Of a DNA stretch of 64,000 bases, positions 5,625-6,702 are shown one piece after another. The notes beneath the pieces were generated by a model. The model was not told the DNA's origin, did not search any database, and saw nothing but the letters and a program-made list of their open reading frames with translations. This stretch comes from an uncultured Chthonomonadaceae bacterium. Its GTDB lineage: Bacteria > Armatimonadota > Chthonomonadetes > Chthonomonadales > Chthonomonadaceae. Each line of letters begins with the position of its first letter. The first letter of the stretch is position 1. The stretch spans positions 119,219 through 183,218 of the forward strand of contig CAWIEK010000046.1 in assembly GCA_963835065.1 (NCBI GenBank), written 5' to 3'. The position numbers and the translations under genes were made by a program.

Positions 5625-5635
5625 CGCATCAACTC

Positions 5636-5678
5636 CGGGAGTAACGGGCAGACAACTGCCCGTTACTCCCGTTTCTTT
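5636..5678 (+). terminator. Strong intrinsic terminator after fusA
   Basis: CGGGAGTAACGGGCAG-ACAA-CTGCCCGTTACTCCCG followed by TTTCTTT. Confidence 0.9.
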
Positions 5679-5739
5679 GCCTGTGCAAGTGTTTGCAGGA
5701 AGTTTGTTGGGTGGTACAACGAAGTTGTGGAGTTAAGCC

Positions 5740-6054
5740 ATGCCGGTAATTAGAATTCATCCGACAGTTCCGCAGGCCCCGCCGGAGTTGGTTGCCGCGC
5801 TTGCAGAAGAATTGCGGCGCAATGCGCCCGAAGGGCCGGAAGACGCGCCACGTATAGTTGAGGAAGAAGCCGTGCGCGGCAACTACTTCGCGGTTAAAGT
5901 AATCTGGGATGCCTGGAAAGGTCTCGCCCCGGAACTGCGCAGTCGCGCGATTATGGACGCCTACAATCAAGTCAGGCCGGAAGATGTGTCCCATATCAGT
6001 CTGGCAATCGGCTTTACCCATGCGGACGCGCAACGCTTCAATCTCACTTCTTGA
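5740..6054 (+). CDS. Small hypothetical protein with weak BolA-like motif
   Basis: GGAG SD; VKVIWDAWKGLAPELRSRAIMDAY resembles BolA VVSxxFxGxxxxxRHRxVYxAL. Confidence 0.6.
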   Translation: MPVIRIHPTVPQAPPELVAALAEELRRNAPEGPEDAPRIVEEEAVRGNYFAVKVIWDAWKGLAPELRSRAIMDAYNQVRPEDVSHISLAIGFTHADAQRFNLTS

Positions 6055-6066
6055 TGCAAAGGCAGC

Positions 6067-6702
6067 ATGATGTCTTATCCTGAACCAGCCTGCGACCAAT
6101 CTGCGCCTTTCCTGATGTGGGTAGAAGACGTGTATTTCATCAACAGGAAATGGCACAACGATCACGGGGTATGTTGAGAGGGGATCGTTCAGGATCAATA
6201 CGATCAATGTGGAAGTGGTAGGGCTATGATCTGTATGCGCCTTGCCCACGTCCCACAAATGTTACGATGATGGAACAAGGCACAAGGTAGCAAAAGACGA
6301 TAGTTTGTGGAGAACAGGCAGGCATTTTGCTTCGCGCTTGGATAGACGTATTGATGTACAGTTAGGGCAGGTTGTATTGCTGCGCCGGGCAGTATTCGGG
6401 CAGTATAAAGCGATTCCACGGCTAATATACAATGTGCCTGAGCGAAGCAGAAGGCAGTGAAAACATTCGGCCTTTATCGCAGATGAAGAAGTCGAATTCT
6501 TGTTTTGTAATGTATTATGTTCCGGGAACTTATACGTTCCTTGTCATGAGGTTTGATCTGGCAGCATCCGCGAACAGAGTTAACACTGAATTGTACACTT
6601 CCTCATCCCATCGCAATGGAAGAAGGACAAGAGTTTACCGTTTACTGCGGCGGGAAAGTTGTTGGAGCAGGTAAGGTTGTCGAACTGATAATGAAATTTT
6701 GA
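6067..6702 (+). pseudogene. Diverged EF-Tu domain II-III-only gene (no GTPase domain), multiply frameshifted
   Basis: Manual translation across frames gives PFLMWVEDVYFI / GTTITGYVERG / VEVVGL / HPIAMEEGQEFTVYCGGKVVGAGKV. These are colinear with EF-Tu PFLLPIEDVFSI / GTVVTGRVERG / VEIVGI / [25 protein letters not shown]. Confidence 0.8.

Follow-up and report, generated by a model that had tools for sequence, protein, structure and literature searches.

EF-Tu is among the most conserved of proteins, its two gene copies are normally kept near-identical, and its domains II-III are a docking site for several toxins, for a phage replicase and for an anti-phage sensor. In the databases, EF-Tu (tufA/tufB) is described by TIGR00485 and by the combination of PF00009, PF03144 and PF03143. 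Diverged duplicates that escaped gene conversion have been described in actEFTu2/Streptomyces EF-Tu3 and in nematode mitochondrial EF-Tu2 (PMC4342817, in the part available to us), and are in this respect like the family reported here, which we call D2-D3 after the two domains that it retains; unlike that family, however, they keep the G domain. As far as the available text of that survey of translational GTPases goes (PMC4342817), it could not have listed the D2-D3 family, because only G-domain proteins were kept. In the available portions of further papers, EF-Tu-dependent tRNases are reported, one of which, CdiA-CT NC101, binds a trypsin-made D2-D3 fragment of EF-Tu via Glu260/Phe262/Arg263 (PMC5737660), domains II-III are likewise the part of EF-Tu that is bound by the anti-phage sensor Avs7 (PMC13581612), and EF-Tu domains are listed among the variable domains of a conflict system (PMC7159879). 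For these conflict proteins, domains II-III are the docking unit, to which the predicted fold of our family is similar (TM 0.82 to 5I4Q chain C), but they use the normal host EF-Tu and not a separate D2-D3 gene. Our literature search found no description of a natural stand-alone D2-D3 gene derived from tufA. D2-D3-only proteins are already present in databases as unnamed clusters: the 'EF-Tu C-terminal domain-related' clusters of the Atlas (194-203 aa; mostly Actinomycetota among the members with a record) have the same architecture and were likened to our family on that ground, outside the alignment and tree. The same architecture is seen in P0034 (196 aa) and in secreted or membrane-anchored D2-D3 proteins; as both P0034 and P0150 lie outside the family on the tree, their origin is likely independent. 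Proteins P0014, P0016, P0018, P0021, P0028 and P0031 are secreted or membrane-anchored and carry G-less EF-Tu D2-D3 modules, which in some of them are arranged in tandem with a zinc ribbon or with C-terminal domains of L7/L12.

We analysed a stretch of 64,000 nucleotides from an uncultured Chthonomonadaceae bacterium (the window), and found in the tufA slot between fusA and rpsJ a gene for EF-Tu domains II-III that lacks the G domain (Table 1). An earlier note on this DNA had claimed EF-Tu D2/D3 motifs in 6067-6702, and all five were found in the right order, spread over three frames. A frameshift-aware alignment of the D2-D3 part of the genome's own EF-Tu to 6079-6687 scored 223 as compared to 28-39 for 12 shuffles, at ~43% identity, and a tblastn search of the genome with its own tuf returned the D2-D3 locus at E 3e-10. 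The profile search that the note had proposed gave a match of Pfam GTP_EFTU_D3 to 6577-6687 (E 6e-4 genome-wide; E 8.6e-6 in a further scan, at 26.4 bits, slightly below the cut-off of 27). The proposed identity as EF-Tu D2-D3 without a G domain is confirmed. A second weak EF-Tu match in the genome, at C63:88718, was rejected, as it lies inside an unrelated permease-like frame. We found no remnant of a G domain between fusA and the ATG at 6070 (score 28 versus 24-39 shuffled), nor any upstream of the gene in the same-genus genome G002.

Table 1. Features of the fusA-rpsJ slot, in window positions.
Feature	Position	Strand	Remark
fusA (EF-G), intact	3498..5624	+	upstream anchor of the tufA slot
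hairpin 3' of fusA that resembles an intrinsic terminator (16-bp stem, T-rich tail)	5636..5680 (terminator 5636-5671)	+	
BolA-like ORF, 104 aa, intact	5740..6054	+	partner of the 166-aa HEPN-type gene
G-less gene for EF-Tu domains II-III, broken 11-14 times in frame	6070..6702	+	
D2-D3 gene 3' end, first copy of a 25-nt direct repeat	6678..6702	+	
HEPN gene, 7-8 frame breaks	6775..7170	+	
'family X' HEPN-partner gene, 81 aa, 7 frame breaks	7209..7454	+	intact in G002 (P0011)
displaced second copy of the D2-D3 gene 3' end, 84% identical	7484..7508	+	G002 also has the repeat
TATAAT, GCCGGTC...GACCGG hairpin and T-tract	7509..7560	+	follows the tufA stop in canonical-tufA relatives
rpsJ (S10), intact	7672..7992	+	downstream anchor

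Most of what the earlier note had described around the gene was found as well. The strong terminator after fusA is present, the slot holds no intact tuf, and the gene is AT-richer than fusA (GC 45-50% versus 57-62%). The real tuf is located on another contig (G000:C63:224717-225916) and encodes an intact EF-Tu of 399 aa beside secE/nusG/rplK-like ORFs, named from their sequence. The claim of an own ATG at the domain I/II boundary stood in part: the start does lie in the linker, but it is the second ATG (6070) that the intact relatives use. A sigma-70 scan revealed no promoter in the interval from the fusA terminator to the D2-D3 gene (2 sites versus 3.3 expected). The host EF-Tu itself carries Asp at E. 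coli position 257, which we take to be a thiopeptide-resistance site, and Gln at 260. Immediately 5' of rpsJ there is a long hairpin (7565-7654) of heptamer repeats (TCGGTGT / ACACCGA), whose counterpart in G002 is similar and built from another unit. Repeats related to these are found again between genes for ribosomal proteins. Rfam gave two sub-threshold miRNA matches only, both on a repeat hairpin. The rplV, rpsC, rplD and rpsQ-like ORFs (12410-16235) carry long low-complexity extensions, Ala/Thr/Glu- or Gly-rich, those of rplV and rpsC being shared with G002 and G001.

Intact relatives exist. Upon searching 40 related genomes with the DNA, we found the cassette in one, G002, three others matching over ~40-50 bases only. 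The order in G002 is fusA, a 166-aa HEPN-type gene, the BolA-like gene, D2-D3, family X and rpsJ, so that an intact D2-D3-only gene near HEPN, which the note had suggested looking for in relatives, is found there. This gene is an open frame of 198 aa (P0001) with PF03144 and PF03143 at 31.8 and 46.1 bits, both over the cut-off, and no PF00009. Protein searches added P0002, P0003, P0004, P0015 and P0172, giving six intact members of 183-204 aa (P0001-P0004, P0015, P0172) with pairwise identities of 36-81% among the five compared, and the five members with a full N-terminus share a common start point in the domain I/II linker. By length and coordinates, P0015 (197 aa) corresponds to a 2000-bp contig of run X1, in which the gene takes exactly 594 nt from ATG to stop and whose fusA side matches the window at 96% identity. 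The position in the fusA-rpsJ slot was demonstrated for G002 and X1, while four of the six members are known from protein collections alone, where intact copies only appear. The window copy, when read through, is 71% identical to the intact P0004 over 203 residues.

By Pfam, NCBIfam and predicted fold, the family shares domains II-III with EF-Tu (TIGR00485), and it shares the fusA-rpsJ position, yet its members are only 32-39% identical to the genome's own EF-Tu, the PF00009 GTPase domain is absent and the residues on the T-stem side are lost. The family scores 108-138 bits against whole-protein EF-Tu profiles with cut-offs of 449-522, and all four members scanned failed the TIGR00485 cut-off of 522 (110-130 bits). 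Judged from its sequence, the D2-D3 family descends from EF-Tu and is not EF-Tu by the defining features; GTP-dependent delivery of aminoacyl-tRNA would in principle be ruled out by the missing G domain.

The range of the family is narrow, one genus so far. Across 401 genomes of the phylum (without G002), none of the matches listed exceeded 177 bits, the best 20 being EF-Tus of the same taxonomic family, at a threshold of E 1e-22 below which broken copies, the window's own included, fall. A census of the slot at 29 rpsJ loci from 42 genomes of the taxonomic family yielded 23 canonical tuf genes (many of these calls being a 3' end alone at a contig edge), 3 empty slots, 2 D2-D3 genes and 1 unreadable locus. 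The empty slots (L026 of G001, L038 of G015 and L047 of G023) belong to three genera, G001 being of the same genus as the window, and none of the three holds an EF-Tu remnant. An unrelated 82-aa ORF occupies the slot of G001. Scanning metagenomes with query A1 gave no matches, and query A3 retrieved 4 loci at 37-38% identity, which is the ordinary EF-Tu level. Viral contigs gave no family match, and a viral fold library searched at E <0.001 returned giant-virus GTPases only. No full-length protein with family-type domains appeared among the 7,995 best candidates scored, a weak negative, the best reaching 154 bits versus 198-380 for the members. Many fusions of D2-D3 to kinase, ABC, ferrochelatase and other domains were discarded, as they have the look of chimeras that the assembly made at the tuf repeat.

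The tree that the note had called for, with 56 rows including the six members, places the D2-D3 family among the EF-Tus of the host family: the members form one clade (100/99) inside a set, starred on the tree, with 9 Chthonomonadaceae EF-Tus (98/99), the tool warning of long branches that meet. An AU test rejected the 18 family-level EF-Tus as a clade excluding the D2-D3 family (p=0.036), this group having been defined after the tree had been seen. At 8 of the 14 canonical-tuf loci read by eye, a hairpin follows the tufA stop, and in the window a hairpin of this type lies directly 3' of the duplicated end of the D2-D3 gene (7484-7508). Hence, given the tree, the slot position and the inherited downstream hairpin, the D2-D3 gene is likely a descendant of tufA. 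With the other tuf copy as a back-up, the G domain of tufA would very probably have been lost and a new start have arisen in the linker of domains I and II. As the HEPN-family X cassette is bracketed by a repeat of the D2-D3 gene's own 3' end, it likely came later and is likely to have entered at that end.

The direct repeats that bracket HEPN cassettes in the window correspond to 3' ends of the upstream genes (7964-7998/9019-9053 for rpsJ and 6678-6702/7484-7508 for D2-D3), and each first repeat copy is followed by a HEPN start (6775, 8014, 9068). It seems that HEPN cassettes insert at the 3' ends of genes and duplicate these ends. The segment 8005-9367 holds an intact HEPN gene (Pfam HEPN 35.1 bits; PADLOC HEPN_IX E 5e-7) followed by three small related ORFs without Pfam matches, and 9059-9367 looks as if the start of a HEPN gene had been joined to a gene of the partner type. 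The HEPN-family X pair at the rpsJ-rplC position recurs in 10 other family genomes. Two-gene cassettes of a HEPN-type gene (166-180 aa) and a BolA-like gene occur at L095:1483-2322, L096:994-1827, L097:955-1836 and L098:904-1752, behind a gap-like gene and, in three of the four loci, before a pgk-like gene (names read from sequence). The 166-aa HEPN-type gene of G002 is missing from the window, leaving the BolA-like ORF orphaned; the HEPN-type protein P0009 has no Pfam match, and the BolA identity of the 104-aa ORF may be taken as a lead only (score 0.84; Pfam on 22% of members).

The window copy is, as it stands, broken. Compared to P0004, it shows 14 breaks, and, as the note had pointed out, the neighbouring HEPN copy is equally frameshifted, as is the next small gene (Table 1). 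The patch of D2-D3, HEPN and family X counts 28 breaks in about 1.2-1.3 kb versus 4 over the 3,181 codons that 15 other genes contributed to the comparison with G002, which amounts to ~55 times the background; fusA, at 97.5% identity to G002, has zero breaks. The 4 background breaks lie in rplB, rplV and rpsC and are single-base frameshifts at 11500, 12566, 13090 and 14118 (two of them in rplV) that are likely assembly errors, indicating that the assembly is error-prone and the patch ~55 times worse. A thioredoxin-like gene (712-1362) is likewise split over two frames, likely by an assembly error. We consider it rather unlikely that the frameshifts are real and that the strain pseudogenised the three-gene patch. 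The breaks do not mainly fall into homopolymer runs (by eye), the window is at most 71% identical to any intact allele, and the HEPN remnant shows 1-2 stops; against this, the window carries a net insertion in every independent comparison, the X1 contig being shorter (326 versus 360 nt and 92 versus 97 nt) and so the X3 contigs (191 versus 196, 151 versus 158 and 104 versus 108 nt), and the 191-nt piece of X3 reads through openly, the corresponding 196 nt of the window being broken twice. Furthermore, no stop appears in the P0004-aligned frame despite the 14 indels, essential genes (rplB, rplV, rpsC) are frameshifted too, and X3 carries two haplotypes at this place. The window also mixes residues of P0004 and P0015, at 11 of 107 differing columns versus 14 of 331 in four control alleles (p=0.02). 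Among the sequencing runs searched, none came from the source sample (best share 0.20). The shorter independent contigs, the open frame of X3 and the broken essential genes are indirect signs that favour local read errors, which the note had raised, and we infer that the breaks probably arose as a consensus over mixed alleles.

What may such a gene do? Our best reading, which we hold at a probability of roughly 40%, is that of a stand-alone EF-Tu look-alike, a decoy or cofactor in biological conflict. The truncated tufA would yield a predicted two-barrel protein of ~200 residues that does not bind GTP, is likely out of translation and, by analogy, likely binds proteins that dock on EF-Tu domain II. 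Such a protein could tentatively be cast in one of two roles, with its alleles swapped between strains: a decoy that draws off toxins or phage proteins dependent on EF-Tu, or a cofactor dedicated to a defence protein. We arrived at this reading because of the variability of the family, its place among orphan HEPN partners and the precedents for docking on D2-D3. Between G002 and X1, the D2-D3 protein is 41% identical while the flanking genes are at 93% and 94%, a variability against conserved neighbours that suggests allele exchange. PADLOC gave no match for the D2-D3 gene.

Selection appears to act on the gene, though weakly. Between the window and G002, we obtained a dN/dS of 0.45 (bootstrap 0.27-0.71) over 129 codons of the broken copy after dropping codons near breaks, with 0.52 for domain II and 0.33 for domain III. 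Intact neighbours range over 0.03-0.19 (rpsL 0) and canonical tuf stands at 0.04, so that the D2-D3 gene exceeds its neighbours 2-15 times, and its dN of 0.29 is about 20 times that of tuf (0.014). A simple pseudogene, for which the note had named a dN/dS near 1 and a lack of intact homologs as the signs, is unlikely for the family, since six intact members exist and dN/dS is below 1. In comparison to neutral simulations that avoid stops, glycines were retained at 54-71% versus 26-33% (z 2.5-4.9, all six members) and substitutions were milder in all six (z 2.1-3.5), whereas hydrophobic retention was weakly raised (z 0.8-2.3) and proline avoidance was unclear (z -0.2 to -1.2). Only 0.35% of neutral runs stayed open at the G002-X1 distance (59% divergence). 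The fold was modelled as two barrels with a pLDDT of 89.8 and a TM of 0.82-0.88 to EF-Tu (~0.86) from an alignment of 45 rows, of which 39 were non-family, for the most part canonical EF-Tus; when the alignment had 5 rows, domain II came out unfolded (pLDDT 49.7). It is quite probable that selection on a folded protein, weak as it would be, keeps the family.

These data also bear on the possibility that the gene is a vestige in slow decay: the frame left from the 3' half of tufA would stay open under weak constraint and have no binding role, where the constraint may consist, for example, in letting translation continue into the next gene or in avoiding a misfolded product. The high dN/dS fits this, as does a GC3 of 0.43 versus 0.81 in tuf, which resembles that of genes in decay or with weak expression, and so do the slot being empty in 3 of 29 loci, the long branches on the tree, the bias of protein matches towards intact copies, and the narrow range, with no member among the matches listed from 400 other phylum genomes at E 1e-22 (without G002). 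We nonetheless regard a vestige as somewhat unlikely, because the dN/dS interval excludes 1, the glycine and substitution patterns are structure-aware, both full-length copies found in DNA (G002 and X1) are intact at 41% identity, and four new residues (E327, Y341, C360 and E373) are fixed in all six members.

The residues kept and lost speak to a second alternative, a residual housekeeping role under stress, as a small chaperone or through binding to aminoacyl ends, to EF-Ts or to the ribosome. In E. coli numbering and with 41 canonical EF-Tus as the baseline, conservation reaches at least 95% at 103 of 195 sites, of which 36 are kept in at least five of the six members and 27 are lost in all six. 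Kept in at least five are E215, E259, R233 and core glycines, with E259 present in 5/6 and position 261 (canonical F261) aromatic in 4/6 and G in 2/6; E215 and E259 presumably belong to the aminoacyl-end pocket of EF-Tu, and E259 lies on the domain-II hairpin to which a known toxin binds. Lost in all six are E378, R318, H319, Y326, R288, T338, N273, R223 and T382, and the strand 349-351 is lost in the family; R288, T338, N273, R223, T382 and this strand we take to be functional sites of EF-Tu, T382 presumably being the site of Doc-type kinases. E378 tunes tRNA affinity, with R318 and Y326 as its partners, according to the available parts of two papers (PMC11409059, PMC12221289). The loss of residues on the T-stem side in 6/6 members weakens the note's idea of a tRNA-binding adaptor, and the D2-D3 protein, which has neither a G domain nor a T-stem surface, would in principle be unable to deliver tRNA. 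In favour of a housekeeping role, the gene remains in a translation operon, E215 and E259 with their assumed pocket are kept, and three members have a domain II that is 48-51% identical to that of the own EF-Tu (the remaining three: 33-37%; domain III of all six: 28-35%). We deem it improbable, in view of the lost T-stem-side residues, 349-351 strand and R223, the greater acidity of most members relative to EF-Tu D2-D3, and the 59% by which the protein differs from strain to strain when the flanking genes differ by 6-7%, which is rare for such proteins. We also considered a decoy for Doc-type kinases and dropped it, as none of the six members has kept T382.

That the protein is a dedicated adaptor or antitoxin of the adjacent HEPN RNase, the link proposed in the note, is highly improbable even though HEPN genes flank the D2-D3 gene in the window and G002 and EF-Tu-dependent tRNases exist (PMC5737660, in its available part), because each occurs without the other: 10 of 27 family loci have HEPN-family X in the rpsJ-rplC interval, and 4 other loci have HEPN-BolA-like, in each case without a D2-D3 gene, X1 has a D2-D3 gene and neither HEPN, the downstream HEPN gene (6775..7170) is absent from G002, X1, X2 and one X3 haplotype, and the downstream cassette, bracketed by the repeat of the D2-D3 3' end, is likely a later arrival.

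For the EF-Tu look-alike in biological conflict, a bolder and doubtful version can be worded, again by analogy: a hypervariable, GTPase-less tufA decoy, a free domain II-III unit whose alleles pass between strains in the fusA-rpsJ slot, amid orphaned genes of antitoxin type, would soak up toxins or phage proteins that need EF-Tu and so shield the one true EF-Tu. The locus would also show how an apparent pseudogene patch in a metagenome assembly can conceal intact, variable alleles. One EF-Tu copy of this lineage very probably escaped, lost its GTPase and diversified ~20 times faster, yet is intact, and full gene, truncated gene and empty slot are seen side by side. Overall, a free natural D2-D3 copy would offer a direct test of decoys or private cofactors made from a core translation factor.
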